Assembly (NCBI GenBank): GCA_004321885.1
Contig: SCQK01000013.1
Coordinates: 111,929-175,928, forward strand
Origin: Patescibacteria group bacterium
Lineage (GTDB): Bacteria > Patescibacteriota > Patescibacteriia > Magasanikbacterales > GWA2-37-8
DNA length: 64,000 nucleotides
Direction of reading: 5' to 3'
Positions 1 through 15,515 of the stretch are shown here, in pieces (position 1 is the stretch's first letter; every line of letters begins with the position of its first letter). The notes under the pieces are model-generated. The model did not search any database. It had not been told where the DNA came from and saw only the letters and a program-made list of their open reading frames with translations. The translations under genes were made by a program, and so were the position numbers.

Positions 1-133
1 GCGCAAATTAACTACATGGGCGAAGAGCCGAATTTTACCGCCGGCATGAAACATTTCAAGCATTTACTGTCCAGTTTTCAGTTGACTTCGGCCGCGCCGT
101 AGGATATAATGCAATAACTAAAAAATTTCAGAT

Positions 134-769
134 ATGCGAACTTCCCTTCCATTTACCCATCGCCAGCTCTCCCCTTCGCCGCCTTCGCGGCATGAGAAAG
201 GGGAGAGGGGGACGACTGCAATATTGCCAGCTATATTGCTCATCGCGTTTGGCATTGCGGCGAGATTTTTGCCCCATCCGGCGAACTTTACTCCCATCGG
301 CGCCATTGCTATTTTTGGCGGACTGTATCTGCCCAAAAAACTTTCTGTTTGGCTGCCTCTCTCGGCCATGCTTATCAGCGATATTTTTATCGGCTTTTAT
401 TCATTGCCGATTATGGCCAGCGTGTACGTCGGCTTTATGTTCGCCAATCTGCTATCCTTGACAGCGCGGGGCAAACTCGCATATACAAAAACCGCCTTTG
501 GGCGGTTTGGGACTATTGCCGGCGCCACGGCGCTAAGTTCAGCCATTTTTTACCTCTTGACAAACGCGGCGGTTTGGGCATTCGGCTCTATGTATCCGCA
601 CAATTTCACCGGCCTTTTGGAATCATACTACCTGGCTCTCCCCTTCTTCCGAAACAGCCTGGCGGGCGACGTTTTCTTCACTTTCGTTTTAGTAGGCGGG
701 ATGGAGTTGCTAAAACATACGTTAAGGGATTCCTCCGCTCTCCGCCGGCTGGCGAATCGATCGGAATGA
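134..769 (+). CDS. polytopic membrane protein (ECF-transporter S-component-like), start uncertain; a TTG near 224 is possible
   Basis: Five to six hydrophobic segments in the ORF translation. The N-terminal 30 aa are charged and low-complexity and probably not translated. This is the only plus-strand gene at the left edge. Confidence 0.45.
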   Translation: MRTSLPFTHRQLSPSPPSRHEKGERGTTAILPAILLIAFGIAARFLPHPANFTPIGAIAIFGGLYLPKKLSVWLPLSAMLISDIFIGFYSLPIMASVYVGFMFANLLSLTARGKLAYTKTAFGRFGTIAGATALSSAIFYLLTNAAVWAFGSMYPHNFTGLLESYYLALPFFRNSLAGDVFFTFVLVGGMELLKHTLRDSSALRRLANRSE

Positions 770-771
770 CA

Positions 772-2190
772 TTATCCATACGGTAACTCCTCTGGCTCTG
801 GCGGTTCTTCTTTTCTCTCTTCTTCCACAGCAGGCCCGACAGGCAAATCCAAATCAATGGGCAAGCCAAACGGCGGCTCCGAGCGCTTGGTGGCGGATTT
901 CTGCAACAACGGGGTCTTCACACTCGGCAACGGGAAGTGCCACAAAGTGGCCAGCTCTTCTATGTTCAAAATATAGGGCGTGCCGTACACTTTAATCTTG
1001 CGCTTCTTAAACGCGTTCACGAATTTGCGTTTTTTCCAAACCACTATAAGCTTCTTAAACGCGTAGTAGGCCTTGGTCACCACGTAGGGCGTGAGCTGGT
1101 TGCGGTTGACCATGCTAAATTGCTTTAGCGAGCCGACATAGCCGTCCAAGCACCGCGAGGGATTGAAAACTTCCTTGCGCGCCACATACAGGGCGCGTAT
1201 TTTTGTCTTAAAGCCGACCTTGGCGATTTTGTCTTCCACGGCCTGCACCGTATTTTTCAGGCCCGGCGGCAATTCGCTCACTTTGCCGGCCACGACCTCT
1301 TCCCTTTTGACTTCTTTTTCCTTTGGTTCAAAGTTCCAATTCCACACGTCCATGAGCATCTCAAACAGCTTGGCCGGCAAACCCAAAATGCCGCCCAGAA
1401 TGCCGGCCTTGGCCGGGGCTTTTTTTTGCGCGATGATTTCCTTTACCAGACTGATGCCGGCGGCCTGCCAGGTATCGGCCACTGGCTCAATCACGATTTG
1501 CGTGAAAAAATTCTCGCCCGCCCCGAGTCGCGTGAAATTTTCCAGCACCGCGGCCATAGGGTCGTTGAACATGGCGTCTTTGGTCACGCTGTGCTCAAAC
1601 TCGGGATAGGTGCGGATGGGGTAGGCATTGTGGCCGGCTAAAGTGAATTCCACGCCGAAGACGTCTTCCGCGTCATTGGGAAATTTTGTCGGAATGACGC
1701 CGACATAATCCTCTATTTCCGTGATTTCGGCCGTCGGGTATTGGGCGTAAATGGCCGCTTCCACCACGTCGCGAAATTCTTGCTCGGTATAAATTAAAAA
1801 TTGAATATAGCCGGCCATGGAAATAATCTCAAAGCTGAACCACTTTTGTTTTTTGCCCAGCCAAAATTTTTCGCCGACATTGGGCCCGACCAGCGCGCCC
1901 GACAGGTGCGAAAAAAGCTGTTCCACGGCCTTGGGGCTTTGAATCACCTCTTGCGGAATCTCAATGGCCAGCACGAGCCATTTCCATTTGCTTGTGTAAA
2001 GCCCCTGCCGATACCACAGCCACAGCTCCTGCCCCATGTAGAAAAAAATTAAGAGCAAAATAGCCCAGCCGATGATGCCAAACAGGGCCAAAATTATTTT
2101 TCCGCTGGACCACGTAAGCAATTGGTCCCAAAACGAAAAATTTAGATTGAATGAGACTCCGCCAAAAGGCGACTCCATGCCAGTGGGCAT
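772..2190 (-). CDS. hypothetical membrane-anchored protein (472 aa)
   Basis: Long ORF with an N-terminal TM helix (ILALFGIIGWAILLLIFFYM) and a basic K-rich C-terminal region. It lies immediately downstream of secF on the same strand. No family recognised. Confidence 0.5.
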   Translation of the reverse strand: MPTGMESPFGGVSFNLNFSFWDQLLTWSSGKIILALFGIIGWAILLLIFFYMGQELWLWYRQGLYTSKWKWLVLAIEIPQEVIQSPKAVEQLFSHLSGALVGPNVGEKFWLGKKQKWFSFEIISMAGYIQFLIYTEQEFRDVVEAAIYAQYPTAEITEIEDYVGVIPTKFPNDAEDVFGVEFTLAGHNAYPIRTYPEFEHSVTKDAMFNDPMAAVLENFTRLGAGENFFTQIVIEPVADTWQAAGISLVKEIIAQKKAPAKAGILGGILGLPAKLFEMLMDVWNWNFEPKEKEVKREEVVAGKVSELPPGLKNTVQAVEDKIAKVGFKTKIRALYVARKEVFNPSRCLDGYVGSLKQFSMVNRNQLTPYVVTKAYYAFKKLIVVWKKRKFVNAFKKRKIKVYGTPYILNIEELATLWHFPLPSVKTPLLQKSATKRSEPPFGLPIDLDLPVGPAVEEERKEEPPEPEELPYG

Positions 2191-2191
2191 A

Positions 2192-2353
2192 TCATTTATT
2201 TATAAACCGGTACACGCCGCCATAGATAATCAAAACCCCTAACACTGTCCACCACCAGCCAAACAAACCCGAAACATAGCCGGCGTAATAGGCAATAACG
2301 CAAATGATGGTGGCAATAGCCGCCACCATGTGACGCACGAGATTATCGGTCAT
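2192..2353 (-). CDS. small membrane protein (53 aa), absent from the ORF track
   Basis: ATG at 2351-2353(-) reads MTDNLVRHMVAAIATIICVIAYYAGYVSGLFGWWWTVLGVLIIYGGVYRFINK, then TGA at 2192-2194. Two predicted TM helices, packed between secF and the downstream ORF. Confidence 0.4.
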   Translation of the reverse strand: MTDNLVRHMVAAIATIICVIAYYAGYVSGLFGWWWTVLGVLIIYGGVYRFINK

Positions 2354-2378
2354 AGATAATAATTACCACGTTAGTATA

Positions 2379-3293
2379 TCACACAACCGCCCGCCTTTGC
2401 CATTTTTCCGCCAGCACCAGCAGAGGGGCGGCGATAAAAATGGAAGAATACGCCCCGCTGGCAAAACCAATAAGCAGGGCCAGGGCGAAGTAATGGATAG
2501 AAGCGCCGCCAAAGAGATAAAGGGCGATAAGGGCGAACAAAGTGGTAACGGTCGTGTTGATAGAGCGCATTAAAGTCTGGTTCAGACCGTTGTTAACCAC
2601 CTCGGCAAAGTCTTCGTTGCGCCGGCGCAATAAATTTTCCCTGATGCGGTCGTAGACCACGATGGTGTCGTGCACGGAAAAACCCAGCACGGTTAAGAGA
2701 GCCACCACGAAAGCAATATCCACCTCCACGCCCCAGCCATGCCCCAAAACCGAAAAAATACCCATCACCAAAAAGACGTCATGCACCACCGCGATTATGG
2801 CCAACAGGCCGTATTTCCAGCTGGCCACGGGCCGCGACACCTTGCGAAAGGCATAGGCGATATACAATATAATGCCCAGGTTGACGAAGATAATGGCCCA
2901 CACCGCCCGCGTGCGCAATTGCTTGCTTACGGCCGAGCCGATTGTTTCAAAACTAATTTCCTTCACCGTGTTTTCTTTGGTCTGAAAATTTTGCGTCAAG
3001 CGCTTTAGCGCCTCCTGATGTTTTTCTTCGCTCAAAAATTCGGTGCGGATAATAATGCTGTCTTCGCCGACGTTTTGAACTTGAACATTTTTCAAATCCA
3101 CTTCGGCAAAAACTTTTTGCACATCAGCGGCCGGCGGCCGGTTGCGGCTAAACGATATTTCCAACAGAGAACCGCCGGTAAAGTCAATGCCCGGCTTTAG
3201 CCCCCACATAAATATCAAAACAAAGGCGGCCACAGTTACCAGTCCGCTGAAACTAAGCAGTACCTTGGAATACTTTATGAATGGTATGGTCAT
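2379..3293 (-). CDS. secF: protein translocase subunit SecF
   Basis: 304 aa with a six-TM SecF topology and conserved SecD/F motifs (LKPGIDFTGGS, GFSVHDTIVVYDRIREN). Directly downstream of secD. Confidence 0.9.
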   Translation of the reverse strand: MTIPFIKYSKVLLSFSGLVTVAAFVLIFMWGLKPGIDFTGGSLLEISFSRNRPPAADVQKVFAEVDLKNVQVQNVGEDSIIIRTEFLSEEKHQEALKRLTQNFQTKENTVKEISFETIGSAVSKQLRTRAVWAIIFVNLGIILYIAYAFRKVSRPVASWKYGLLAIIAVVHDVFLVMGIFSVLGHGWGVEVDIAFVVALLTVLGFSVHDTIVVYDRIRENLLRRRNEDFAEVVNNGLNQTLMRSINTTVTTLFALIALYLFGGASIHYFALALLIGFASGAYSSIFIAAPLLVLAEKWQRRAVV

Positions 3294-3302
3294 AGTGAAA
3301 AA

Positions 3303-5405
3303 TTATGTATGGGATTGCTTCCCGCCAGAGGCGGGCAGGCGCTCTTCGCTCGCAATGACATTTTTTTTATGCCCCAAAAACATCCAATTGCCATACTCAT
3401 TGAACCAGCGGAAAACAATGCGGATATTGATGCGGGTAACGGTAATGGCCGTAAACATGGAGACCAACGTGCCGATGGCCAACGTGACGGCAAAGCCCTG
3501 CACAAACCCGGTGCCAAACCATATAAGGAATCCGCAACTGATAAGGGTGGTGATATTGCTGTCGCGAATGGACGGCCAGGCGCGCGCGAACGACTCCTCG
3601 GCCGCCGACAGCAAACTGCGGCCATTGCGTAATTCTTCTTTCATGCGCTCAAACACCAGCACATTGGCGTCTACGGCCATACCGATAGACAAAATAAAGC
3701 CGGCAATGCCCGACAAGGTTAAAGTTACTCCGATAATCTTAAAGATGGCCAAACTTAAAAGGGCGTAGACGAGCAGAGAAACATTGGCCAACAAGCCGGG
3801 AAAGCGATAATAGCCAATCATGAAAAGCAAAACTAAAATCAAACCAACAATGCCGGCGAAAAAACTTTTACGCAGATACTCGGAACCCAAAGTGGCGTCC
3901 ACTTTCTGCTGGCTGATGAGGTCTACGGCCACGGGCAAAGCGCCGGCGTTGAGGCGCTGGGACAAAAGCCGCGCTTCGCCGAGCGTGAAACTGCCCGAGA
4001 TGACGGCCGAGCCGCTGGTGATGGCTTCGTTCACGCGCGGAATGCTAATGGGCTCACCGTCCAAAAATATGGCCACGTTCTTGCCCACATTGCGCGTGGT
4101 GATATCGCCGAACAATTTTGTGCCTTCTTCGTTGAATTGCAGATTGACCTGCACTTGTCCGGACTGATTATCCTGGGTTACCTCGGCGCGCTTGAGCTGC
4201 TTGCCCGACAAGCCCGAGCTTTTCCATTCCTCGGCCGGCGGCACGACATCGGAAGCCTGTTTAGTCTTCACGTACACGCGGGCCACCTCATATTCCCTGG
4301 ACGGCTTTTCATCTTTTTTGTAAATAATGTGAAAACCGAATTTTGTTTCCACCGCATTGGACACAGCGCCCTTGGGCATCGCGCCCGCCGCCTCTTCAAA
4401 CTCCGGCACCATTTGGCCCTTCTTAAACCAGCCCAGCTCTTCGCCGCGCACTTCCAATTTTTTATCCGGAGAATATTGCTGTACCAACTGGGCAAAATTG
4501 GCGGGCGACGCCTGGGCTTTTATTTCACCGGCTCTTTGGCGGGCCTGGTCTTTGTTCAATTTGCTTTCACACCCTTCGGCGCCGGCATAACAAACCAACA
4601 AGTGCGACGCGTTTATCATTTTTTCGCCGTCGCGGCCGGAGAGCCGTTTTACCACGTTCAAGCCGTCAAAACTTTTCACCAGGGTTTTGCCCGCCTGGCC
4701 GTCTTTGGCTTTCTCGGCCCAAGCAAAAATTTCCGGATAAATTTCTTTGGTAATAAATCCCAGATTGCCGCCCTTGTCTTTGCTGGCCTGGTCTTCGGAA
4801 TATTGGGCCGCGATTTTGCCGAAATCGGCCCCGGGTTTTAGGGCCGCGGTTAGAGCTGTTTTGGCTTTTTTATCGGCCGCGCTGTTAAAAACGTCCAGGT
4901 CTTTTTTTTCTTGGGGTGTCAAATCGCGGGCCGGGTCGTGATTTTCTTCCTTAAATTCCAGTATCGGAGTTTCGCCAATCATTTTGATGGCCTGATTGAC
5001 ATCGGTAACGCCGGGCAATTCCACAATCACGCGATAATCGCCGCCGACCTTGGTGGTTTGCACCAATGGCTCGGCCACGCCCAGGCCCCCGCGCACGCGC
5101 CGCTCTATCACGTCGCGCACGCCTTCCACGGCGTCGCCGCGGTCGCCTTCGGGAATGGTTTCTGTTTTGGCCTGATAAACCAAATGCGCGCCGCCCTGCA
5201 AATCCAGGCCCAGATTAAAGCCCTTATCCGGCAAGCGGGGCAAACCGATGTTGGCCGCGTTGTTGAGCCAGTCTATGCCGCGGTTGGCGAACGCCGGCAA
5301 AACAATAAGCAGGGTGGCAATGGCCAAAGCGACCACGCCGGCCGCGTGCCATTTTAATTTTTTCGCCGACGAAACCTTGTTGGAAATTTTTACTGCCATA
5401 AACAC
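3303..5405 (-). CDS. secD: protein translocase subunit SecD carrying two parvulin-type PPIase domains in the periplasmic P1 head
   Basis: 700 aa. N-terminal TM plus the P1 head (GLDLQGGAHLVYQA) and a C-terminal six-TM SecD core. Two rotamase-like segments lie in between: a weaker one (FGKIAAQYSEDQASKDKGGNLGFITKEIYPEIF) and a clear one (ASHLLVCYAG...ELGWFKKGQMVPEFEEAA...KFGFHIIYK). Confidence 0.85.
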   Translation of the reverse strand: MFMAVKISNKVSSAKKLKWHAAGVVALAIATLLIVLPAFANRGIDWLNNAANIGLPRLPDKGFNLGLDLQGGAHLVYQAKTETIPEGDRGDAVEGVRDVIERRVRGGLGVAEPLVQTTKVGGDYRVIVELPGVTDVNQAIKMIGETPILEFKEENHDPARDLTPQEKKDLDVFNSAADKKAKTALTAALKPGADFGKIAAQYSEDQASKDKGGNLGFITKEIYPEIFAWAEKAKDGQAGKTLVKSFDGLNVVKRLSGRDGEKMINASHLLVCYAGAEGCESKLNKDQARQRAGEIKAQASPANFAQLVQQYSPDKKLEVRGEELGWFKKGQMVPEFEEAAGAMPKGAVSNAVETKFGFHIIYKKDEKPSREYEVARVYVKTKQASDVVPPAEEWKSSGLSGKQLKRAEVTQDNQSGQVQVNLQFNEEGTKLFGDITTRNVGKNVAIFLDGEPISIPRVNEAITSGSAVISGSFTLGEARLLSQRLNAGALPVAVDLISQQKVDATLGSEYLRKSFFAGIVGLILVLLFMIGYYRFPGLLANVSLLVYALLSLAIFKIIGVTLTLSGIAGFILSIGMAVDANVLVFERMKEELRNGRSLLSAAEESFARAWPSIRDSNITTLISCGFLIWFGTGFVQGFAVTLAIGTLVSMFTAITVTRINIRIVFRWFNEYGNWMFLGHKKNVIASEERLPASGGKQSHT

Positions 5406-5415
5406 AATTATTATG

Positions 5416-5440
5416 TCATTCCGGGCTTGACCCGGAATCT
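5416..5440. repeat. GTCATTCC...GGAATGAC-family palindromic hairpin between tRNA-Val and the secD start
   Basis: gtcattccgggcttgacccggaatc. The same arm motif recurs at about a dozen other sites in the window. Confidence 0.7.
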
Positions 5441-5449
5441 ATTTCCGTG

Positions 5450-5522
5450 TGGACGGTGCAGGACTCGGACCTGCGGCCCTTGCGATGTAAACGCAATGCT
5501 CTACCAACTGAGCTAACCGTCC
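5450..5522 (-). tRNA. tRNA-Val (anticodon TAC)
   Basis: Reverse complement folds as a canonical cloverleaf: GGACGGT-TA-GCTC-AGTTGGTA-GAGC-A-TTGCG-TTTACAT-CGCAA-GGGCC-GCAGG-TCCGAGT-CCTGC-ACCGTCC-A. No encoded CCA. TTGCCA-N17-TAAAAT promoter at about 5530-5575(-). Confidence 0.9.
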
Positions 5523-5609
5523 GTCCGCATCTCGGCTATGATTTTACCCCTTTTTGCCTTTTTTGGCAAGAACCATTGTCATTCCTGCGCAAGTAGGAAT
5601 CCACAATCA

Positions 5610-5912
5610 TTACGATTCGTCCAAAATTATCTTTTCTTTGAATCCTCCCCTGTCTTCGGCCTTGGTGGCGCGTATTTTTTCCAGCTCAACGGCGTCATAA
5701 CCCTTGAAATCGCGCATGGAATTGAGAACTTCGTAAAGGTCGCCCAAATCATGTGGCGATTCCGAGGAAAAAAACTCTCCCAGCTCCTCCAGCAGTTTTT
5801 CCTTCAACTTTTTCCAGTATTCCTCACTGCCGGCGATATGGTACACCGCCTGTCCGCCTTTGGCTTTGATGATTTCGGGAATCTTGTCCCGCACGAGTTT
5901 ATTGTATTTCAT
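5610..5912 (-). CDS. MazG-like nucleotide pyrophosphohydrolase (small all-alpha NTP-PPase)
   Basis: 100 aa, MKYNKLVRDKIPEIIKAKG...EELGEF...DLGDLYEVL. This matches the MazG/HisE-type NTP-PPase signature, including the EExxE-like acidic motif. Confidence 0.65.
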   Translation of the reverse strand: MKYNKLVRDKIPEIIKAKGGQAVYHIAGSEEYWKKLKEKLLEELGEFFSSESPHDLGDLYEVLNSMRDFKGYDAVELEKIRATKAEDRGGFKEKIILDES

Positions 5913-5924
5913 ATAATCTAATCG

Positions 5925-6010
5925 CTGTCATTGCGAGCGAGCCACAAGCGAGCGCGGCAATCCCTTCCGTGTTTGGGATTGCTTCGCCCCTTCGGGGCTC
6001 GCAATGACAT
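5925..6010. repeat. composite nested palindrome (GTCATTGCGAGCGAGCC ... GGCTCGCAATGAC with an inner GCAATCCC/GGGATTGC hairpin)
   Basis: Direct reading. The outer 17-bp arms at 5927-5943 and 5996-6009 are inverted repeats. A near-identical element occurs at 47827-47920. Confidence 0.8.
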
Positions 6011-6039
6011 TTAAGTTTCAAAATAATTTTTACCTGTTT

Positions 6040-6267
6040 TTATCGCTTCCAACATGAAACGAACTTCAAATTTCCTATTTCAACGCCCAGTTCCTCCGTC
6101 GCTTCTCGTTTCACCGTTTCCATGGGGCTTTCTCCAAACTCCACGTGTCCGCCGATGGAACCATAACAACCGTCCGCGTGCGCGCCCTTGCGTTTGGCGA
6201 GCAAGGTCTTGCCATCTTTTATTATCACCGCCCCGGCGCCCACTTTGATTATTTTATCTTCCGACAT
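6040..6267 (-). pseudogene. NUDIX hydrolase remnant, ends about 12 aa after the Nudix box
   Basis: MSEDKIIKVGAGAVIIKDGKTLLAKRKG...GGHVEFGESPMETVKREATEELGVE is a clear Nudix box (GX5EX7REUXEEXGU). The protein then stops after KFVSCWKR, directly abutting the 5925-6010 palindrome. The upstream 80 codons of the ORF-track ORF lie in GC-rich non-coding-looking DNA. Confidence 0.5.
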
Positions 6268-6329
6268 AATTGAAACTTCGAACTTCTGATTATTTGACTT
6301 AAAAATATGATTATGGTAGGGTGTTTTTG

Positions 6330-6596
6330 CCGTCAGAGAGTGCTCGAAGGCCCTACTCCGGAAGACGTCCCGGAGCCAGGAGGAGAAGCCGTCCCACCAT
6401 TCCATGCCGCCGGCCACAGTCCGGCCGCGAGGTGCGCGCGCTCCGCTTCCAAAGGGGCATCTCGAAAACTGTGCCGGGGTGGTTTGGCGTCTTTGCGCCA
6501 GATTGCACCCCACATGGACAGCGTCCTCCTACGGGGAGGACTATGGTTGCTTAGCGCCATCAACCCTCTCTGACGGCGCTTTTTTTTTATTTGTAT
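6330..6596 (+). ncRNA. GC-rich (~64%) structured element closed by an 11-bp terminal helix and followed by a U-run; class unknown
   Basis: gccgtcagagag at 6330-6341 pairs with ctctctgacggc at 6568-6579. There are internal hairpins such as gtcctcc-tacg-gggaggac, and a T9 run at 6588-6596. ORFs are open on both strands in all frames, as expected for non-coding GC-rich DNA. Confidence 0.3.
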
Positions 6597-6805
6597 TTCT
6601 TCAACAACTCATCTAATTTTTTCATGATTGGCGCGCGCCAGTCGTCAATCATTTGCGTCCTGATAAATTTTACCATTTTTTTGTCTTCCGCCGTCATCTT
6701 TTTACTCTCAAGTTCGTAAATTTTTCCCAAAATAAAATAATCTCTATCTTCCTTCAAAACATAACGTTTTTTGTCAATCGGACGAATTTTTGGTAATTTG
6801 TTCAT
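6587..6805 (-). CDS. hypothetical small protein (72 aa; start at MNKLPKIRP)
   Basis: AT-rich ORF. The N-terminal extension in the ORF track runs through the 6825-6912 palindromic element, so the internal Met is the likely start. Confidence 0.4.
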   Translation of the reverse strand: MNKLPKIRPIDKKRYVLKEDRDYFILGKIYELESKKMTAEDKKMVKFIRTQMIDDWRAPIMKKLDELLKKYK

Positions 6806-6824
6806 ACTACACAATTCGTTGTGG

Positions 6825-6912
6825 CAACAATCGTCATCCTGAACTTGTTTCAGGATCCCCACTGTCCAATTCGCCGACTCGCTCGATCGGAGATGCCGAA
6901 ACAAGTTCGGCA
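6825..6912. repeat. pair of palindromic hairpins (CCTGAAC-TTG-TTTCAGG and GCCGAA-CAAGT-TCGGC, ending CATGAC)
   Basis: Direct reading. A related hairpin ending ...TTCAGCATGACAT occurs at 7237-7275. Confidence 0.7.
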
Positions 6913-6937
6913 TGACAGTGACGCGGCTGGAAACTTA

Positions 6938-7231
6938 TCACTCCCATTCGTCGCTCAAGTCTTTCAAAGTGGGATTAAGTCCTTTTACTAAATTTATTTT
7001 CCACTGACGATGCCAATTTTTGATTTGTTTCTCTCTGTTAATTGCGTCACGTGGATCCAAAAAAACTTCGTAATAAACTAACTTTTTCAGATTATACTGT
7101 TTTGTAAATCCCTCATTGATTCCATTTTTATGTTCTTCAAGCCGACGTTCTAGATTGTTCGTTATACCTACATATAAAACCGTGTTGATGATGTTTGTTA
7201 AAATATACACATAAAATGTTTTCCCCTCCAT
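6938..7231 (-). CDS. GIY-YIG nuclease family protein (small stand-alone)
   Basis: 97 aa. MEGKTFYVYIL...VLYVGITNNLERRLEEHK gives GIY..YVG motifs plus the conserved R and E. AT-rich (~38% GC). Confidence 0.85.
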   Translation of the reverse strand: MEGKTFYVYILTNIINTVLYVGITNNLERRLEEHKNGINEGFTKQYNLKKLVYYEVFLDPRDAINREKQIKNWHRQWKINLVKGLNPTLKDLSDEWE

Positions 7232-7273
7232 ACGATTTGCGATTGGAGATGCTGAAATAAATTCAGCATGACA

Positions 7274-10117
7274 TTACTGGCCGTGACAGCGCTTGTATTT
7301 CTTCCCGCTGCCGCAAGGGCAAGGGTCGTTGCGGCCCACCACTTTGCCGGCCTCGTCGCGCACTTTTTTCCCGGCCGGCGCGGCGCCGTTGTCGCTGGTC
7401 TTGCTGGCCCCGCTAAACATCAGATTCCCCGCCTGCATCACCGACGGCGCTATCTGTATTCCCAAATTTACTTTATAAACCAAATACACCACTTCTTTTT
7501 GAATGTAATTAAGCAGTTCGTTGAACATCCGGTAGGTTTCTTTTTTGTATTCCACCAGCGGGTCGTGCTGGGCATAGCCGCGCAGGCCAATGCCGGTGCG
7601 CAAATAATCCACGGCCACCAAATGTTCCACCCACAGATTGTCTATGGCGCGCAGCAATACTTGTTTTTCTATCTCGGCCATCATCTCGGGCGGGGCTTGT
7701 TTGACCAGCAGTTCCTCGTATTTATACTTGGCCGTTTCTATCAAAAATTCTATGAGTTGCGTCCTAATCGTAACATCATCAACCCGCCCGCCCACCGGCG
7801 GGGCGCCAAATTCTCCGATTTTTTTCTTTTCATCGTCAGACAGCGGGAAAATGGTCGTCATTGTTTCGGCAATTTCTTTCACATTCCAGTCACTGCGGTC
7901 TTCGGCGTTGGTATGGAACGAAACCACCTCTTCAATTTCCTGTTCTATCATTTCCAAAATCATGACGCGCAAATTTTTTACCCCCTCTTTCGTCTCCCCC
8001 TTATCAAGGGGGAGAGAAGCGGTGGACGTCTCCGCCATATCACGAGAGAGAGAAGCGGTTGATTCAAAAGCGCGCAATACCTCGCGCCGTTTGCCGTAAA
8101 TCACCTCGCGGTGCTTGTTGAGCACGTCATCGTACTCCAGCAAATGTTTGCGCGTGTCAAAATGCAAACCCTCCACTTTGCGCTGGGCGCTTTCTATAAT
8201 GCGCGTAATCATCCCCTGCTCTATGGGCATGTCATCTGGCACTTTAAGGGCGTTCATTACCCCGCGTATTCTGTCGCCGGCAAAAATACGCATCAGGTCG
8301 TCTTCGGTGGAAAGGAAAAATTGCGACTGCCCCGGGTCGCCCTGGCGCCCGCTGCGGCCGCGCAACTGGTTGTCTATACGCCGGCTCTCGTGGCGCTCGG
8401 TGCCCAGCACAAACAAACCGCCGGCCGCGCGCACGCGCCCGGCTTCTTCGGGTACAGGCGGATTACCGCCCAAAATTATATCCACTCCCCTGCCGGCCAT
8501 GTTGGTGGCCAGGGTCACGCGCCCGGGCTGGCCGGCCTGCGCGATTATCTCGCCCTCGCGCTCATGATTCTTGGCGTTTAGAATTTCATGCGCTATTCCC
8601 TCTCTTTGCAAATGCAAACTCAAGGCCTCGTTTTTCTCCACTGATACCGTGCCTATCAAAACCGGCTGGCCCTTGGCCTGTAATTCTTTTACCATCTGGG
8701 CGATGGCCTTGTGCTTGGCCTCTTCGGTTTTATAAATCCTGTCCGGAAAATTCGTGCGCTGGCTGGGTTTGTTCGGCGGAATTACCACCACTTCCAGTTT
8801 GTAAATTTTGCCGAACTCTTCGGCCTCGGTGACGGCCGTGCCGGTCATGCCCGACAGCTTTTCGTACAAACGGAAATAATTTTGAAAAGTAACCGTGGCC
8901 ATGGTCTGACTTTCATGTTGAATGACCACGTTTTCTTTGGCTTCTATGGCCTGATGCAAGCCCTCGCTATAGCGGCGGCCCGGCATTTTGCGGCCGGTAA
9001 ATTCGTCCACTATGAGCACCTCGCTGTTTTCCACGATATAGTCGCGGTCGCGCAAGAAAAGCGTCTGCGCCCGCAAAGCCTGCTCCACGTGGTGCACGGT
9101 ACGCACCCCGCCCTCGGCGTAAATATTGTCCACGCCCAGCCATTTTTCCATTTTAGCGATGCCGGCTTCGGAAAGCGTGGCCGAGCGCATTTTTTCGTCT
9201 ATGTTAAAGTCCTCGTTTTCTTTCAAGCGGCGCACCAGCTCGGCGAATTTGTAATACATGTCGGCCGCTTTTTCGGCCGGCGCGGAAATAATCAAGGGGG
9301 TGCGGGCTTCGTCTATTAAAATGGAGTCAACCTCGTCCACGATGGCGTAAAAAAACGGCCGCTGTACCATCTCGCTCAAATTTTGCACCATGTTGTCGCG
9401 CAAATAATCAAAGCCATATTCGTTGTTGGTGCCATAAGTGACGTCGCAGCCGTAGGCCTCTTGGCGCGAGCAGGGTTCCAAAAATTCCGTTTCCACTTTG
9501 TACATTCCTTTGGCGTCGCGTTCTTTGTCTGCTTCACTGCCCTCCTGTAACCCCACCCCCTGCCACCACACCAAAGATTTTGGTGTGGTGGCCTGCCCAT
9601 CCCCTAATAGGGGAGGGGTTTTTGCGTAGCGAAAAGAAACACCAAGCTGTTGAATCACGCCCACGCTCAATCCCAAAGCATCATATATCTGCCCCATCCA
9701 CACAGCGTCGCGTTTGGCCAAATAATCATTCACAGTCACCACGTGCACTCCCCTGCCGGCCAAGCCGTTTAGATACACAGGCAAGGTAGCCACCAGGGTT
9801 TTGCCCTCGCCAGTGCCCATCTCAGCGATAGCGCCGCTATGCAAAGCCATGCCGCCCTTTAGCTGGACGTCAAAATGGCGCATACCAGTCAAACGTTTTG
9901 ATGTTTCGCGCACCACGGCAAACGCCTCGGGCAAAATATCGTCCAGGGTGGCGCCGTCGGCCAAACGCTTTTTGAACTCATCGGTTTTGCCCCGCAACTG
10001 TTCCAAACTCAAAGACGCCATCCCGCTTTCCAGGGCATTGATTCTTTCCACGAGCGGCTTGTATCCGGCAATCACTTTCGCATTCGGGTCGCCAAAAATT
10101 CTGCTAAAAAAAGACAT
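7274..10117 (-). CDS. secA: preprotein translocase ATPase SecA (start at MSFFSRIFGD; the ORF track extends to 10228)
   Basis: N-terminus MSFFSRIFGDPNAKVIAGYKP. Walker A GEGKT, the DEAD-like motor, YGTNNEYGFDYLRDNM, and the C-terminal zinc finger CPCGSGKKYKRCHG. Two in-frame repeat-element insertions sit at 9563-9620 and 7978-8045. Confidence 0.95.
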   Translation of the reverse strand: MSFFSRIFGDPNAKVIAGYKPLVERINALESGMASLSLEQLRGKTDEFKKRLADGATLDDILPEAFAVVRETSKRLTGMRHFDVQLKGGMALHSGAIAEMGTGEGKTLVATLPVYLNGLAGRGVHVVTVNDYLAKRDAVWMGQIYDALGLSVGVIQQLGVSFRYAKTPPLLGDGQATTPKSLVWWQGVGLQEGSEADKERDAKGMYKVETEFLEPCSRQEAYGCDVTYGTNNEYGFDYLRDNMVQNLSEMVQRPFFYAIVDEVDSILIDEARTPLIISAPAEKAADMYYKFAELVRRLKENEDFNIDEKMRSATLSEAGIAKMEKWLGVDNIYAEGGVRTVHHVEQALRAQTLFLRDRDYIVENSEVLIVDEFTGRKMPGRRYSEGLHQAIEAKENVVIQHESQTMATVTFQNYFRLYEKLSGMTGTAVTEAEEFGKIYKLEVVVIPPNKPSQRTNFPDRIYKTEEAKHKAIAQMVKELQAKGQPVLIGTVSVEKNEALSLHLQREGIAHEILNAKNHEREGEIIAQAGQPGRVTLATNMAGRGVDIILGGNPPVPEEAGRVRAAGGLFVLGTERHESRRIDNQLRGRSGRQGDPGQSQFFLSTEDDLMRIFAGDRIRGVMNALKVPDDMPIEQGMITRIIESAQRKVEGLHFDTRKHLLEYDDVLNKHREVIYGKRREVLRAFESTASLSRDMAETSTASLPLDKGETKEGVKNLRVMILEMIEQEIEEVVSFHTNAEDRSDWNVKEIAETMTTIFPLSDDEKKKIGEFGAPPVGGRVDDVTIRTQLIEFLIETAKYKYEELLVKQAPPEMMAEIEKQVLLRAIDNLWVEHLVAVDYLRTGIGLRGYAQHDPLVEYKKETYRMFNELLNYIQKEVVYLVYKVNLGIQIAPSVMQAGNLMFSGASKTSDNGAAPAGKKVRDEAGKVVGRNDPCPCGSGKKYKRCHGQ
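9563..9620. repeat. CCACCACACCAAA...TTTGGTGTGGTGG hairpin plus CCCCTAATAGGGGAGGGG hairpin inserted in frame in secA (near-identical copy at 30724-30777)
   Basis: Encodes ...TPPLLGDGQATTPKSLVWWQGVGLQEG... in a SecA loop that is about 10 aa long in E. coli. Confidence 0.85.
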
Positions 10118-10248
10118 AGAACCACTAATCTTTTTCGCTAATCTCACTAATCGCGAACGCCGTAATTCTATCATATTTACGCGGAAAAGCAAGGGGTCGC
10201 GCGGTACACTGGCTCGCGCGATGAACAAATTTATGCTATAATATCCCC

Positions 10249-11970
10249 ATGGCCGAAAACATCTTTTTGCAAATAAGCCTGCTGTTGGCCCTCACGGTGG
10301 GCGCGGCTTTCATTCTGCGCCTCCTGCGCCAGCCCCTGATTATCGCTTACCTGGCCGTGGGCGTGCTGGCCGGCCCCATGTTTTTCAATCTGCTCAAAGG
10401 CGGGGCAAATGTTTACGACGCGTTCGCCAAAATCGGCGTGGTGCTTTTGCTGTTTGTCGTGGGCCTCAATCTCAATCTCGGCTATCTCAAAAAAATCGGC
10501 AAAGTGGCCATCATCACCGGCCTGGCCCAGGTTACGCTCACCGCTCTCATCGGCATGGCCATCTTGCAGGCGCTCAAATTTTCCCTGCTCTCTTCCATCT
10601 ATCTGGCCGTCGCCATCACCTTTTCTTCCACCATCATCATCACCAAGCTGCTCAATGAAAAAAAACACACTGAAAGCATGTACGGCCGCTATGTCATCGG
10701 CCTGATGCTGATGCAGGATTTTGTCGCCATTATTATAATGATGATTCTGGGCATCACCCGCCAGCAGGCCGAATTTTCCGCCGGCGCGCCCCTGGCCCTG
10801 AAAATTATTTTTCTGGCTGGCTTTATTCTGGCTCTAACAAAATACATTGCCCCCGCCATCTTAAAACGCGTGGCCGACTCCGGGGAATTTTTGTTTGTCT
10901 TTACCCTGGCCTGGTGCCTGGGCATCGCCAGCATCACCTATTGGCTGGGCTTTCCGGTGGAAGTCGGGGCCATCATCGCCGGCCTCACCCTGGGCTCAAC
11001 GCCCTATCAGCCAGAAATTTCCAGCCGCGTCAAACCATTGCGCGATTTTTTCATTGTTTTGTTTTTCATCATTCTGGGCGGCAGTTTGGAGCTAAACAAT
11101 TTGCGCGCTTCCCTCGCGCCCGGCCTCATTCTTTCGCTTTATATCCTCATTGGCAACCCGCTCATTCTTTACATCCTTTATCGCCTGCACAAATTCAACC
11201 GTCGCAACAGCTTTTTATCGGCCCTTACCGCGGCCCAGGTGAGCGAGTTCGGCTTTATATTGCTTTACACCGGCGCCGGCATCGGCCACCTGGGGAAAAA
11301 CGAGATTCCTGTTTTTACTCTGGTTGCCTTAATCACAATCTTCATTTCTTCCTACCTTATTACTTACAATGAAAGAATTTATCATTTTTTGAAGCCGTTT
11401 TTTGCCCTGTTCGGCAAAGACAACCGAACGCAAAAAGAAGACGATGCCGCCTCTTATGATGTCTGGGTCTTCGGCTATCATCGCATCGGCTGGAAGGTTT
11501 GCGAAGCATTGATTGAAAAAAAGATTAAATTCGCGGTGGTGGATTACAATCCGGAAATTATTTCCAAATTAAAAAAACGCGGGGTGCCCAGTTATTTCGG
11601 CGATGCCTCGGATATAGAATTTTTAGACGCCTTGCCTCTGGGCGAGGCTAAACTTATTATTTCCACTTTGCCCACGGTAGAAGACCAGCGCGCCCTGATA
11701 GCGCATGTAAAGCACAACGGCAAAATTAGACGCGGGCGGGCGCGCCAGGCCCCGTTTTTCATCGCCAGCTTGTACGACGACGCCTACCTACAGGAGCTGT
11801 ATGAAATGGGCGCGGATTATGTGATGATGCCGCATCTGCTGGGCGGCCAGCGCATTTACGATGTTTTGAAACGCGGGCATTGGGCCAAAGAAGGCTTGAA
11901 AAAATTAAGGCAGTACCAAAAAGACGAGCATAATTCGCGCTTTGAGGCGCTGGGCGCCCGCCATTGTTAA
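10249..11970 (+). CDS. CPA2-family cation:proton antiporter (KefB-like) with a C-terminal RCK/TrkA-N domain
   Basis: 573 aa with about 12 TM helices, followed by a Rossmann-type TrkA-N segment (VWVFGYHRIGWKVCEALIEKKIKFAVVD). Confidence 0.8.
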   Translation: MAENIFLQISLLLALTVGAAFILRLLRQPLIIAYLAVGVLAGPMFFNLLKGGANVYDAFAKIGVVLLLFVVGLNLNLGYLKKIGKVAIITGLAQVTLTALIGMAILQALKFSLLSSIYLAVAITFSSTIIITKLLNEKKHTESMYGRYVIGLMLMQDFVAIIIMMILGITRQQAEFSAGAPLALKIIFLAGFILALTKYIAPAILKRVADSGEFLFVFTLAWCLGIASITYWLGFPVEVGAIIAGLTLGSTPYQPEISSRVKPLRDFFIVLFFIILGGSLELNNLRASLAPGLILSLYILIGNPLILYILYRLHKFNRRNSFLSALTAAQVSEFGFILLYTGAGIGHLGKNEIPVFTLVALITIFISSYLITYNERIYHFLKPFFALFGKDNRTQKEDDAASYDVWVFGYHRIGWKVCEALIEKKIKFAVVDYNPEIISKLKKRGVPSYFGDASDIEFLDALPLGEAKLIISTLPTVEDQRALIAHVKHNGKIRRGRARQAPFFIASLYDDAYLQELYEMGADYVMMPHLLGGQRIYDVLKRGHWAKEGLKKLRQYQKDEHNSRFEALGARHC

Positions 11971-12030
11971 GTTTTGAATATTAAAAACTCGCACACGAAA
12001 ACATAGAAAAAGATATCCACAGCCCCGCGC

Positions 12031-12059
12031 TTGACACTAAGCGGGGTGTAAAGTATCAT
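12031..12059 (+). promoter_or_regulatory. consensus sigma70-type promoter (TTGACA-N17-TATCAT) driving the GC-rich island gene
   Basis: TTGACA at 12031-12036, a 17-nt spacer, then TATCAT at 12054-12059. It is followed by a ~110-nt leader with several hairpins (ccgtc-ggtt-gacgg, agggct...agccct, ctcgc-atga-gcgag) and GGAGAG 5 nt before the ATG. Confidence 0.5.
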
Positions 12060-12173
12060 ATACCGGCTTCGGAAAGTGGTAACGGGCCCATCCGTCGGTT
12101 GACGGAGAATTAGGGCTACGTGCCAATCCTCTAAAGCCCTCGCATGAGCGAGGCAACGAACAAGGAGAGACGG

Positions 12174-12557
12174 ATGGAAACCAAGACGCAGAAGGGGAAC
12201 CTCGCCGTGCCCGTCATCGCCCCCGACACGGACCAGCTCCAAAAGGCAATCTTCACGCACGAGCCCACCCCGATCGTCTACAAGAACGAGAAGGGCGAGC
12301 TGGTGCGCTGCTGGGCGGCCTTCAACGCCGTCCACGCCGAGACCGCCGACAAGAGCGTGTTCGTGCTGCGGGGCAAGATCGTGGCCGGCGACGCGAACTT
12401 CCTGCGCGCGCACGAGAACGCGGTGCGCCGGAACTACGAGGCGTCCCTCATCTACAAGCTCGGGCAGGACTACGCCCAGCTGGAGATGTGGGACAAGTCC
12501 GGCAAGGACGAGATCCCGCCGGGCACGTTCTCGAGCGACGACCACCGCGCGCGATAG
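12174..12557 (+). CDS. hypothetical protein (127 aa) in a very GC-rich foreign-looking island
   Basis: Start METKTQKGN, preceded by AAGGAGAG. Third-position GC is very high (GAG/CTC/GCC/CGC codons), unlike the rest of the window. A ~180-nt 3' UTR ends in the terminator gacc-cagcaacagca-ggtc-T6. The antisense 265-aa ORF 11967..12764 is a composition artefact. Confidence 0.55.
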   Translation: METKTQKGNLAVPVIAPDTDQLQKAIFTHEPTPIVYKNEKGELVRCWAAFNAVHAETADKSVFVLRGKIVAGDANFLRAHENAVRRNYEASLIYKLGQDYAQLEMWDKSGKDEIPPGTFSSDDHRAR

Positions 12558-12747
12558 CGCCACCGACAGAACCACGGCGCTAACCGCAACCGCACATTCC
12601 CACCAGTCGTCCCCTCCCCAATTCGGGACGCATCTCACAGTAGACTGTGAACCCCATCGCGACACGCGTCGCGGTAGCGCGGTTCCCTCTGCGAGACACA
12701 ACACAAGAGGCCCGACCCAGCAACAGCAGGTCGGTCTTTTTCGTTTA

Positions 12748-12776
12748 CAAAAAACCCCGCTCATTGCGGGGTCTAT
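12748..12776 (-). terminator. intrinsic terminator for the 12808..13449 gene
   Basis: On the minus strand: CCCCGCAATGAGCGGGG followed by TTTTTT. Confidence 0.6.
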
Positions 12777-12807
12777 AGCTTTATAACTTGATAACTTTCT
12801 ACTTCAA

Positions 12808-13449
12808 TCACGGTTCCACCAAAATCTGCGCCGCGCCGCCGCCATCGCACGTGATGAAGAACTTGCCCACATACTTGGCCGTGGCAATGGCGAAACCGTA
12901 TTTGGGCACATAGTACGACTGCTTGCCGAAAGCAACGGTGTGCGCCTTGGCATCGCGGTTGTCCAGCATAAACTGCTTGCCTTTTTTCATGGTCAAAGAC
13001 CCGGGCGTGCCTTTGCATTTATAAAACTGATAATAATACCCGGATTTGCGATAGATACTTAAAGCCTTAGTGTAACTTAATGTGGCCGAAGGGCTGACGC
13101 CTGTTTTAGCGCCAGTACCCGTAACACCACCTGTGCCTGGCACCGTGGATGCGGCGGTAGTGGCGGTAGTGGCGGTTTTATCCGTGGACGGCTGTTCCCC
13201 TGCCTCGGTAGTGGTCGCGGTCTGCTCTTCGCCCGGCGCCGGACTGACGGCCGGTTTCTTGCCCCATTTATTCCAGGCCAGCAAAGCCACCACAATCGCC
13301 ACAATCACGATAATTGTGGGCAGATTGCCTTTTTTGTCCGCCGGCGGCGCTTCGGGCGCCGACTGCCCGCCTGTTGGCGGGTTTCCCGCTCCGCCAACTG
13401 GCGGATTGGTATTTTGGTTGTCCATAAAGTCAAAAATTACATTACTCAC
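12808..13449 (-). CDS. membrane-anchored secreted protein with a T/A/P-rich linker (GTG start)
   Basis: GGAGGGAAAGT then GTG. N-terminal TM (LPTIIVIVAIVVALLAW), a low-complexity linker, and a ~100-aa C-terminal globular domain. TTGACT-N17-TATATT promoter at about 13455-13490(-). Confidence 0.6.
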   Translation of the reverse strand: MSNVIFDFMDNQNTNPPVGGAGNPPTGGQSAPEAPPADKKGNLPTIIVIVAIVVALLAWNKWGKKPAVSPAPGEEQTATTTEAGEQPSTDKTATTATTAASTVPGTGGVTGTGAKTGVSPSATLSYTKALSIYRKSGYYYQFYKCKGTPGSLTMKKGKQFMLDNRDAKAHTVAFGKQSYYVPKYGFAIATAKYVGKFFITCDGGGAAQILVEP

Positions 13450-13561
13450 ACTTTCCCTCCGCTATCATCAATATACCCCAACCCGCTCAAAAAGTCAACG
13501 ATTGCGGGATCCCCGCCGCGTTTACAAAAAATCCCCGACTTAGCCGGGAATTTTTTACTTG

Positions 13562-13632
13562 CAGGGGCTGAGGGAATCGGACCCCCAACTTCTCTTTTGG
13601 AGAGAGGTGTTATACCACTTAACTAAGCCCCC
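13562..13632 (-). tRNA. tRNA-Trp (anticodon CCA)
   Basis: Reverse complement: GGGGGCT-TA-GTTA-AGTGGTA-TAAC-A-CCTCT-CTCCAAA-AGAGA-AGTT-GGGGG-TCCGATT-CCCTC-AGCCCCT-G. It is followed on the minus strand by the hairpin CCCGGCTAAGTCGGGG plus T6 (13520-13550). Confidence 0.8.
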
Positions 13633-13649
13633 GAGAGGGGCGGCTCTTA

Positions 13650-13805
13650 TTATTTCGTCTCTTTGTGCATGGTATGTTTTTTGCAATGCCGGCAGAATTT
13701 TTTCATCTCCAAGCGGTTTTTGAGAGTTTTTTTGTTGCGGGTGCTGAAATAATTCGCGCGCTTGCATTGCGAGCATTCCAACTTGGCCAAATTATCTTGA
13801 GACAT
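13650..13805 (-). CDS. rpmG: 50S ribosomal protein L33, absent from the ORF track
   Basis: [51 protein letters not shown]. This has the typical L33 length, the CxxC...CxxC zinc ribbon and the KNxxxRLExKKyC motif. Confidence 0.9.
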
Positions 13806-13830
13806 AATAAAATATTAGGCTTGGTGGAGT

Positions 13831-13860
13831 GTAGCACACTTCACGCGAATTGTCAAAATT
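13831..13860 (-). promoter_or_regulatory. sigma70-type promoter for rpmG (TTGACA-N17-TACACT)
   Basis: Minus-strand reading TTGACAATTCGCGTGAAGTGTGCTACACT, about 25 nt upstream of the rpmG ATG. Confidence 0.55.
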
Positions 13861-13911
13861 ATTTCCCTCTTGACAACTCATACACAGGAGGTATGATAAA
13901 AGTAGACGAAC

Positions 13912-14127
13912 CTTTTATTTCATACTGTATGGGGACGCGAAAGTGCGGGCGCGCCTAGGCTAACCGAGGCGCCTCTTTACAAGGAACCGCTGGCTGAAAA
14001 ACAACCGGTTCGGGGCAAGAGTCCCGAAACAAGCGCTTGGCGCACGGATTGTTTTTCAACCCCAGGTCGGCTGGGTCTGCCCGCAGTGTAGAGTTAAAAA
14101 CAGTCCCGACTTAGTCGGGACTGTTTT
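13912..14127 (+). ncRNA. candidate ~215-nt structured small RNA, divergent from rpmG; class unknown
   Basis: Plus-strand promoter TTGACA (13878-13883), N16, TATGAT. The transcript begins GGGGACGCGAAAGUGCGGGCGCGCC, contains multiple GC hairpins, and ends at the bidirectional terminator cagtcccgac-ttag-tcgggactg plus a U-run (14101-14127). No ORF. Confidence 0.3.
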
Positions 14128-14133
14128 GGCGCG

Positions 14134-14395
14134 AGCCGATGAGCGGATTTGAACCGCTGACCACCTCCTTCGCTTATACTTTATATTGCTATAAAGACTA
14201 GACTGTATCTTTGGCTTATCCTTTACCGGACTTAGCCACCCTTGTCAGTCGTTCGCCCGCGATTAGCGGGACGGTCTTGTCCCAATTTATTTAGGGATAT
14301 TAACCGTTATTCGGGATTCACCACGATGTTTCCATCGTGATGGGCGAGGCTTGCGGCTCACCATGGAGGTGCTCTACCAACTGAGCTACATCGGC
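14134..14395 (-). tRNA. tRNA-Thr (anticodon GGU, tentative) interrupted by a 189-nt group I intron in the anticodon loop
   Basis: Exon 1 at 14360-14395: GCCGATG-TA-GCTC-AGTTGGTA-GAGC-A-CCTCC-ATGGT. Exon 2 at 14134-14170: AA-GGAGG-TGGTC-AGCGG-TTCAAAT-CCGCT-CATCGGC-T. Acceptor and anticodon stems pair perfectly across the insertion. The spliced anticodon loop is AUGGUAA. Confidence 0.75.
14171..14359 (-). mobile_element. group I intron (ORF-less) in tRNA-Thr
   Basis: The 5' exon ends in U and the intron ends in G. Contains CACGATG-GAAA-CATCGTG (GNRA hairpin), CCCGC-TAATC-GCGGG, a P7-like GACTG/CAGTC pair, and AAAGATACAGTCT resembling the conserved group I S element. Confidence 0.6.
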
Positions 14396-14400
14396 ATTTT

Positions 14401-15060
14401 CTAATTTTTTTTATTTTCCAAAATCCTCATTAATTCATCTCTCATTTTTTTATTATGGTAATAAACTGTTAAAACTCCATGTCTACTTTTTTCGCGATAA
14501 GTACCTTTTCTAACAGACATTGTTATCGTGCTTTTGTAAAATTGATTTTTATTTACCTTTATTTGCCCCTTCCAAAACCTTAGCGCTTCAGTCACTGAAA
14601 TGTCATTGAATAACTGAAGGCTAAACTTAAGGTCTTTTCTTCTAATGGAAAAAAATTTAACTAAAAAGTCAATAAATTTCTTGACCAATCTTGGGTCAGT
14701 ATTTCCCAACCTAACTGTGCATTTATCCGCTTTTGTTCCCTCCCCCCAGTATAACCCAAGTCCAAAACCATATAAAATTCCCTCTTTTAATGTATGTGGA
14801 TACTTTATGACAAATGGATCACCGTTTGGGTTATTTTTTTTGTAAATAGCTTCACTGATAGATCTACACGTAATCGAATATTTTTCCATCCAATAACGTA
14901 TTTTATTTACTGAACATTCGAAAATATTGGCAATTTCTTGTGCCGACTTTCCCTGATTTTGATATAATTTTTGCAAAACACCTTTGCTTATCATATCACA
15001 AATTATATCATAGCCGACTGAATAGTACAAGTAACCCCAAGTAGATAATATGGTTGTCAA
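14401..15060 (-). CDS. LAGLIDADG-type homing-endonuclease-like protein with an N-terminal HTH, free-standing between two intron-bearing tRNA genes
   Basis: 219 aa, TTG start 4 nt after AAGG. HTH segment GKSAQEIANIFECSVNKIRYWMEKYSI. Single LAGLIDADG-like motif LYGFGLGLYWGEGTK followed by the typical ...GNTDPRLVKKFIDFLVKFF helix. AT-rich (~33% GC). Spacers to the flanking tRNAs are 5 and 9 nt. Confidence 0.55.
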   Translation of the reverse strand: MTTILSTWGYLYYSVGYDIICDMISKGVLQKLYQNQGKSAQEIANIFECSVNKIRYWMEKYSITCRSISEAIYKKNNPNGDPFVIKYPHTLKEGILYGFGLGLYWGEGTKADKCTVRLGNTDPRLVKKFIDFLVKFFSIRRKDLKFSLQLFNDISVTEALRFWKGQIKVNKNQFYKSTITMSVRKGTYREKSRHGVLTVYYHNKKMRDELMRILENKKN

Positions 15061-15069
15061 TGAACCTTG

Positions 15070-15363: not shown

Positions 15364-15382
15364 ATCTTCTTAAATTTTCTTG

Positions 15383-15454
15383 AGCCGCCTCAGGGATTCG
15401 GACCCTGGACCTACGGTTTACAAAACCGTTGCTCTACCGCTGAGCTAAGGCGGC
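15383..15454 (-). tRNA. tRNA-Thr (anticodon UGU)
   Basis: GCCGCCT-TA-GCTC-AGCGGTA-GAGC-A-ACGGT-TTTGTAA-ACCGT-AGGTC-CAGGG-TCCGAAT-CCCTG-AGGCGGC-T. TATAAT sits 4 nt upstream. Confidence 0.9.
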
Positions 15455-15515
15455 AATTATACCGCTGCCTGCCCGCCTTTGGCGGGAGCTAAGGCGGTGT
15501 CTGCGCGCGTTTGAC

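Follow-up and report, generated by a model that had tools for sequence, protein, structure and literature searches.

Genomic setting of the SecA–SecD interval

The window, that is, the whole 64-kb stretch of DNA that was analysed, belongs to a contig of 175,928 nt in a MAG of the Patescibacteria (CPR) that is close to Candidatus Magasanikbacteria. All genes identified between positions 2379 and 10228 lie on the minus strand; they encode SecF (2379-3293), SecD (3303-5405), a tRNA-Val found by ARAGORN (5449-5522), a MazG-like ORF of 100 aa (5610-5912), a NUDIX fragment (6040-6267), a 72-aa ORF annotated by NCBI as hypothetical protein EPN28_03535 (6587-6805), a GIY-YIG nuclease (6938-7231), and SecA (7274-10228; TAN33098.1). 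The NUDIX fragment is C-terminally truncated and covers Pfam positions 4-70 of 134. The GC-rich element considered here is situated between this fragment and the 72-aa ORF, the two neighbours that an earlier note on this DNA had named and that we confirm.

When compared to related loci, the order SecA then SecD was kept in 93 of the 160, among the matches listed, and the gap between the two genes in these 93 relatives ranged from 63 nt to 5.7 kb and was filled with unrelated inserts. Since both the length and the content of the gap vary among relatives, the region was correctly described as an accessory hotspot. The relatives' gaps repeatedly carry house-cleaning NTP pyrophosphatase genes of the MazG-like and NUDIX types. 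GC-rich islands were also found in the relatives' gaps; these were located on the strand opposite to SecA, were mutually unrelated, did not resemble the element, and contained neither a tRNA nor an Rfam match. Those inspected in three loci (L071, L038, and L052) were small ORFs accompanied by promoters, terminators, and ribosome-binding sites of the AAGGAG type. Regarding the 72-aa ORF, two homologues (61% identity) were the only ones found, and the gap after each is too small to accommodate the element, so the element and the ORF do not form a module. One of these homologues, situated elsewhere, adjoins two GIY-YIG genes and a Ham1-like NTPase gene.

Short repeat elements bounded by inverted repeats are located between several genes of the 2379-10228 region. 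Elements of the type GTCATTGCGAGC / GCTCGCAATGAC were found at 5926-6009 and 47812-47931, along with a solo arm at 3348-3359 at the end of the SecD ORF; the first of them comes shortly after the point at which the NUDIX gene is cut off, a truncation that it may mark. Paired hairpin repeats of the form GTCATCCTGAACTTGTTTCAGGATCC... / ...GGAGATGCCGAAACAAGTTCGGCATGAC at 6833-6916 and 7236-7266 flank the GIY-YIG gene and lengthen the upstream 72-aa ORF to a spurious one of 108 aa. A 31-nt palindrome, GCCACCACACCAAA-NNN-TTTGGTGTGGTGGC, occurs at 9562-9592, 17980-18010, 30723-30753, and 48625-48655 (three perfect copies and a fourth with one mismatch, versus a chance expectation of 0). The copy at 9562-9592 is placed within the SecA frame, in a segment encoding ..ATTPKSLVWWQG.., and the palindrome resembles in-frame palindromic elements such as the Rickettsia RPEs. 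Elsewhere in the window, a group I intron match (15123-15335) directly adjoins a tRNA gene (15383-15454), an arrangement that fits the intron-bearing tRNAs reported in CPR genomes (PMC8172020). An ORF-poor segment (13650-14400) adjoins another tRNA (13562-13632) and bears a perfect 15-nt palindrome (14097-14127) and a hairpin (13992-14061).

Predicted fold and flanking signals of the element

The element is delimited by a perfect 12-bp inverted repeat with 225 nt between its arms. On the plus strand, the 5′ arm at 6329-6340, GCCGUCAGAGAG (as DNA GCCGTCAGAGAG), and its perfect complement, the 3′ arm at 6566-6577, CUCUCUGACGGC (as DNA CTCTCTGACGGC), form the terminal helix P1, all 12 pairs of which have a pairing probability of approximately 1.0 in the ensemble of the 6329-6588 transcript. 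The perfect pairing noticed earlier is therefore present, with 12 bp and not 11, with arms starting at 6329 and 6566 and not at 6330 and 6568, and with 225 enclosed nucleotides in place of 230; the GC content given for them, 64%, was reproduced by counting. According to a prediction from the single sequence, in which the MFE and centroid structures coincide, the interior (6341-6565) would form a four-way junction composed of two domains (6344-6465 and 6469-6521) and two hairpins (6523-6541 and 6543-6560), with a further hairpin, CUCCGG/CCGGAG, at 6356-6375. The hairpin at 6523-6541, GUCCUCCU-ACG-GGGAGGAC, has 8 bp including a closing U.G pair; it is the one quoted in the earlier note, and its loop is ACG and not a UACG tetraloop.

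On the 3′ side, the dinucleotide GC (6578-6579) separates P1 from a run of nine T residues (6580-6588), a run that had been noticed earlier. It starts 2 nt past the helix, overlaps the stop codon (6587-6589) with which the convergent 72-aa ORF ends, and is one of just two T runs of this length in the window. Immediately before it, a terminator hairpin is predicted at 6553-6580, formed by AGCGCCAUCA (6553-6562) and UGACGGCGCU (6571-6580), with nine pairs, one A.C mismatch, an 8-nt loop, and an energy of -12.5 kcal/mol when folded alone. Together with the U9 tract it corresponds to the definition of an intrinsic terminator and is among the best hairpin-plus-T-run configurations in the window. 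A simple terminator scan did not call the hairpin at 6553-6580 because of the A.C mismatch. Since every neighbouring gene is on the minus strand, this predicted plus-strand terminator would have no other transcript to act on. Its 3′ arm shares bases with the 3′ arm of P1, and the model ensemble at equilibrium favours P1, with pair probabilities of approximately 1.0 versus approximately 0 for the terminator hairpin.

On the 5′ side, a sigma-70-like promoter site, TTGACT-17-TAGGGT, is located on the plus strand at 6294-6322 (TTGACT at 6294-6299 and TAGGGT at 6317-6322) and predicts a +1 position at about G6329, the first base of P1. The site scores 8/12, its -10 hexamer is weak (3/6), and a stricter consensus promoter scan did not call a site at 6294-6322. 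Using a criterion of a -35 hexamer with at most one mismatch, a spacer of 16-18 nt, and TANNNT, 42 comparable sites occur in the window, i.e., 0.33 per kb per strand, and the chance of finding one 4-9 nt upstream of the helix is approximately 0.002-0.005. Runs of at least seven T occur at approximately 0.7 per kb per strand. The joint chance of a promoter-like site and a U-tract at the two helix ends is about 0.003 x 0.003, a post-hoc figure that assumes independence. By this post-hoc estimate, what exceeds chance is the arrangement of promoter-like site, helix, and T-run.

The 12-bp long-range helix by itself is not significant. Perfect inverted repeats of at least 12 nt within 300 nt number 12 in the window versus 0.85 in local shuffles, most of them being short-range hairpins; when the arms are required to be more than 100 nt apart, two repeats were observed against approximately 0.6 expected per window, which is within chance expectation. 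The whole element has a folding z of -4.5 on the plus strand and -3.9 on the minus strand, and ranks 9th among 251 segments of the same size across the 64 kb (mean -1.0, sd 1.76), with a value similar to those of the segments bearing the L10 leader and the group I intron/tRNA. When the terminal helix is removed, the interior gives z = -2.05 on the plus strand and -0.93 on the minus strand. The interior folding energy is thus unremarkable for the 64-kb window, and the description of the interior as full of local hairpins was overstated, given that it folds only 2 sd better than shuffles. As for other segments, the copies of the 31-nt palindrome give the most extreme folding z-scores of the window, and the segment 14098-14352, which has no Rfam match, shows the lowest folding z (-7.5).

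Coding potential, homologue searches, and a candidate RNA gene

All six reading frames are free of stop codons over 176 nt (6353-6529), the longest such stretch in the window, followed by stretches of 148 and 135 nt; the earlier observation of six open frames on both strands therefore stands for these 176 nt. A codon-usage score trained on 36 long ORFs of the window gave -0.26 to -0.63 bits per codon for the six frames of the element, versus +0.38 +/- 0.16 bits per codon for the genes of the window read in frame. On the plus strand, no SD motif plus start codon opening an ORF of more than 8 aa was found. On the minus strand, two start codons are preceded by SD-like motifs, and one could read the element as an orphan small protein gene of 60-75 aa starting at ATG 6515, with AGGAGG 9 nt before it, or at ATG 6560, or alternatively as a plus-strand ORF. 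The small GC-rich ORFs with AAGGAG sites seen in the same gap in L071, L038, and L052 are in keeping with such a gene; however, they lie on the strand opposite to SecA, where the element has no start with an SD motif, and the AGGAGG of the minus strand sits within an 8-bp hairpin.

The 76-aa translation of the minus-strand ORF gave a phmmer match with E = 1.8e-15 to a 1448-aa protein (P0124), which would speak for a small protein. P0124 is composed of approximately eight near-identical 112-aa repeats, however, and the match consists of one 27-residue motif counted eight times. For one repeat copy the pairwise E is between 4e-5 and 6e-6, a value that thousands of the 1.8 billion proteins reach by chance, so the match is not significant singly and homology of the ORF to P0124 was rejected as repeat inflation; the case is a caution on reading phmmer matches made of several stretches. 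A chimeric query of the six translations against 5.8 billion proteins returned no match at E<=0.01, and the related loci (2.4 Mb), searched with all six frames by tblastn, likewise gave none. Because no frame matches a known protein, the element is not a recognisable gene fragment. With codon statistics that look noncoding in all six frames and an empty six-frame search, a small protein appears highly improbable, and the element is best read as non-coding, in agreement with the earlier note.

The search for homologues covered at least 80 SecA-anchored loci from GTDB genomes and at least 80 from metagenomes, each comprising +/-10 kb around SecA, for a total of 161 loci (2.4 Mb) including one added later (L161). 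Besides the source protein TAN33098.1, the nearest SecA in the protein database showed 76% identity, so the searched collections hold no close relative. Neither nhmmer nor blastn matched the element in the 160 SecA-anchored loci listed, and nhmmer found no match in L161. A covariance model built from the single element sequence and its predicted structure (R1) gave nothing in the 160 SecA-anchored loci listed with default filters, and nothing beyond hairpin noise (at most 13.7 bits) in the ten nearest or most relevant loci with filters off. The phage and plasmid collections (blastn) and three viral-contig patterns held no match to the element either.

Neither elsewhere in the window nor in the 161 loci does the perfect 12-bp helix P1 recur, a result that bears on a further reading, in which the element is a MITE-like mobile element with 12-bp terminal inverted repeats. 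The perfect repeats and the length of about 250 bp are what such an element would show, and the region has other short elements bounded by inverted repeats (the GTCATTGCGAGC / GCTCGCAATGAC pair described above) as well as the GIY-YIG nuclease gene. Nevertheless, the element is present as a single copy in the 64 kb and in none of the 161 loci, no clear target-site duplication flanks its repeats, and a GC content of 64% is atypical for such an element, which leaves this reading with very little credence. A DGR template was rejected as well, because the window holds no second copy.

Our preferred reading, held tentatively and with somewhat less than even confidence, is a lineage-specific, stand-alone non-coding RNA gene of approximately 252-260 nt on the plus strand. 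It is based on the non-coding statistics, on the promoter-like site and terminator bracketing the helix, on the lack of any other plus-strand transcript for this terminator, on the uniqueness of P1 among the sequences compared, and on the fold, which is favourable for the whole element and, for the interior, better on the plus strand than on the minus strand, and the general proposal of the earlier note, a non-coding RNA on the plus strand that ends at the T-run, fits the same features. Transcription would start at about G6329 from the sigma-70-like promoter, the GC-rich body would fold into a multi-branched structure, and the local hairpin at 6553-6580 with its U9 tract would terminate transcription. 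After release, the 5′ end would capture the 3′ arm, giving the more stable 12-bp P1 in which both ends are hidden. An end-paired layout of this kind is common in stable protein-binding or structural RNAs. In this model, promoter activity, accumulation and stability of the RNA, the order of terminator formation and P1 refolding, and any function are inferred. The RNA would be antisense to any transcript that runs on from the 72-aa ORF to the NUDIX fragment, so a cis-antisense effect is possible.

The principal alternative, which we consider unlikely without regarding it as far-fetched, is that the element is non-functional GC-rich DNA, the decayed or foreign remnant of an insert in the hotspot, in which the repeat and the hexamers are coincidental and the terminator is a leftover or stands alone. 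It would account for the near-chance number of long-range repeats, for the modest interior z on the plus strand, and for the want of a homologue in any search made. The setting is also in line with it, as the SecA-SecD gap of the 93 relatives listed varies so widely and carries unrelated GC-rich inserts, a truncated NUDIX gene and repeat elements adjoin the element, and such gaps gather non-functional DNA. Against this stand the joint placement of the promoter-like site and the U-tract, improbable by chance if the two are independent, and the fact that no frame matches a known protein.

Another alternative concerns the strand. If the minus strand were the functional one, the element would serve as a structured spacer, or as a 5′ leader, that separates the NUDIX gene from the 72-aa ORF and acts in processing, stability, or ligand sensing. 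All neighbouring genes are on that strand, the NUDIX ATG follows 61 nt after the end of the element, the whole-element z there is -3.9, and no minus-strand terminator follows the 72-aa ORF, which makes read-through across the element likely. This reading is nonetheless very unlikely: the interior z on the minus strand is just -0.93, what follows the element on that strand is just the truncated NUDIX gene, probably a dead one, neither strand matches a riboswitch or leader family, and the T-run and the promoter-like site are sensible only on the plus strand. Riboswitches, T-boxes, and other cis leaders were also rejected for the plus strand, where no gene lies downstream and no family matches.

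Returning to the plus-strand RNA gene, a bolder version would make the element the first representative of a new class of structured RNAs of about 250 nt in Magasanikbacteria-like CPR, stable, end-paired, and protein-binding or catalytic, with a terminator remodelled into the closing helix, and undetected because the lineage is a database singleton; we hold this to be quite unlikely. If the RNA is transcribed and stable, it would be among the very few candidate regulatory or structural RNAs of CPR beyond the universal ones. If the folding scheme is true, it would be a neat example of an RNA that folds during transcription and then rearranges, with one terminator arm common to the closing helix. 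At present there is one sequence, unconserved and located in a hotspot prone to junk, and its main value is that of a candidate for later checking.

Comparison with known RNA families

Rfam 15 was applied as a gathering scan of the whole window and, at E<=10 with permissive filters, to segments of 501 nt and 267 nt. In the window, seven features were found, namely five tRNAs, the group I intron, and the L10 leader, while the element gave only weak matches to terminator parts of unrelated sRNAs. In the scan of 267 nt, any family scoring at least approximately 11 bits would have been listed, and none was, including RNase P, 6S, tmRNA, and retron RNAs, with which the earlier note had suggested a comparison. 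There is consequently no support for reading the element as a retron, 6S, RNase P, tmRNA, SRP, or riboswitch RNA. For tmRNA, ARAGORN applied to 5300-7400 found the tRNA-Val at 5449-5522 as its sole prediction, and no Rfam match was obtained.

In retrons, the reverse transcriptase gene lies directly downstream on the same strand, and the a1/a2 repeats flank the msr-msd region. The inverted repeats of the element are a1/a2-like in that they enclose approximately 230 nt of structured sequence, a likeness that is generic and not diagnostic; unlike in retrons, a terminator follows directly. No plus-strand gene lies downstream (all genes of 6587-10228 are on the minus strand), and none of the eight otherwise unassigned ORFs of at least 140 aa in positions 1-16000 had an RVT Pfam match. 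The absence of a nearby reverse transcriptase gene, already noticed in the earlier note, thus holds for ORFs of at least 140 aa within 16 kb, and the retron is excluded because no reverse transcriptase is found downstream or within that distance; the resemblance to an msr-msd RNA is not supported, and no msr model in Rfam matched.

The second resemblance that had been suggested, to 6S RNA (SsrS; RF00013 and relatives), fared no better. The 6S RNA is a rod of approximately 160-200 nt with a large central bubble, which binds the sigma-70 holoenzyme and templates pRNA. The element is similar in being a stand-alone unit of a few hundred nucleotides whose ends pair in a long closing helix, whereas its length of approximately 255 nt and predicted four-way junction differ, it does not match the 6S model, and it is not conserved in the syntenic regions of relatives.

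Bacterial RNase P RNA is typically approximately 300-400 nt long, and the element, with a P1-like terminal helix and a GC-rich multi-helix body, is similar in general layout and shorter than is typical. The reading deserved attention because diverged forms are common in CPR genomes, the clade of the host, and often hard to detect there: in 10 of 35 circular CPR genomes, RNase P RNA came to light through sub-threshold RF00010 searches, and helices are frequently absent (PMC8172020). On this precedent, the element could be a highly diverged housekeeping RNA beyond the reach of the Rfam models, e.g., a reduced RNase P RNA or a 6S-like RNA. Its 5′ and 3′ ends are paired, its hairpin order loosely recalls P1-P3...P18, and no RNase P, 6S, SRP, or tmRNA gene was found in the 64-kb window. 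However, RF00010, RF00011, RF00013, and others gave nothing at E<=10 (approximately 11 bits) under permissive filters over the 267 nt. The universal P4 strands and the J-region motifs are lacking, a motif search of the window for GGAAAGUCC / ACAGAA..GGCUUA found none, and the P4 look-alikes GGAGGAGAAGCC and GGUUGCUUAG in the element were seen by inspection to form no P4-like helix, the candidate strands being unpaired. Neither is the predicted fold a rod with a central bubble, and, although relatives would be expected to show a housekeeping RNA, none was found in the 2.4 Mb of related loci, a comparison that covers +/-10 kb around SecA. A diverged housekeeping RNA is accordingly extremely improbable. 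An RNase P motif match in locus L011, from a hunt in all loci, was due to chance and is not RNase P.

When compared to generic stand-alone sRNA genes, the element shares the promoter-like site, the lack of an ORF, the hairpin followed by a U-tract, the intergenic position, and the restriction to a lineage. In contrast to typical base-pairing sRNAs, it is larger (approximately 255 nt), has 64% GC, and is multi-branched with paired termini. It is plausible that the element is a stand-alone bacterial sRNA gene outside any known family; a conserved new class is not demonstrated. Another parallel is provided by long GC-rich intergenic regions (GC-IGRs) in lower-GC surroundings, which are enriched for structured RNAs (PMC6429828, PMC11109978). 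In the GC-IGR survey, 427 of 4714 regions were unnamed and 607 of 4714 were low-ranking (PMC11109978, Table 1), for want of representatives, and the element would belong with these. Like these regions, the element is long and GC-rich within lower-GC surroundings and has too few representatives to model, whereas its promoter-helix-terminator geometry makes the single-sequence case a little stronger than GC content would by itself.
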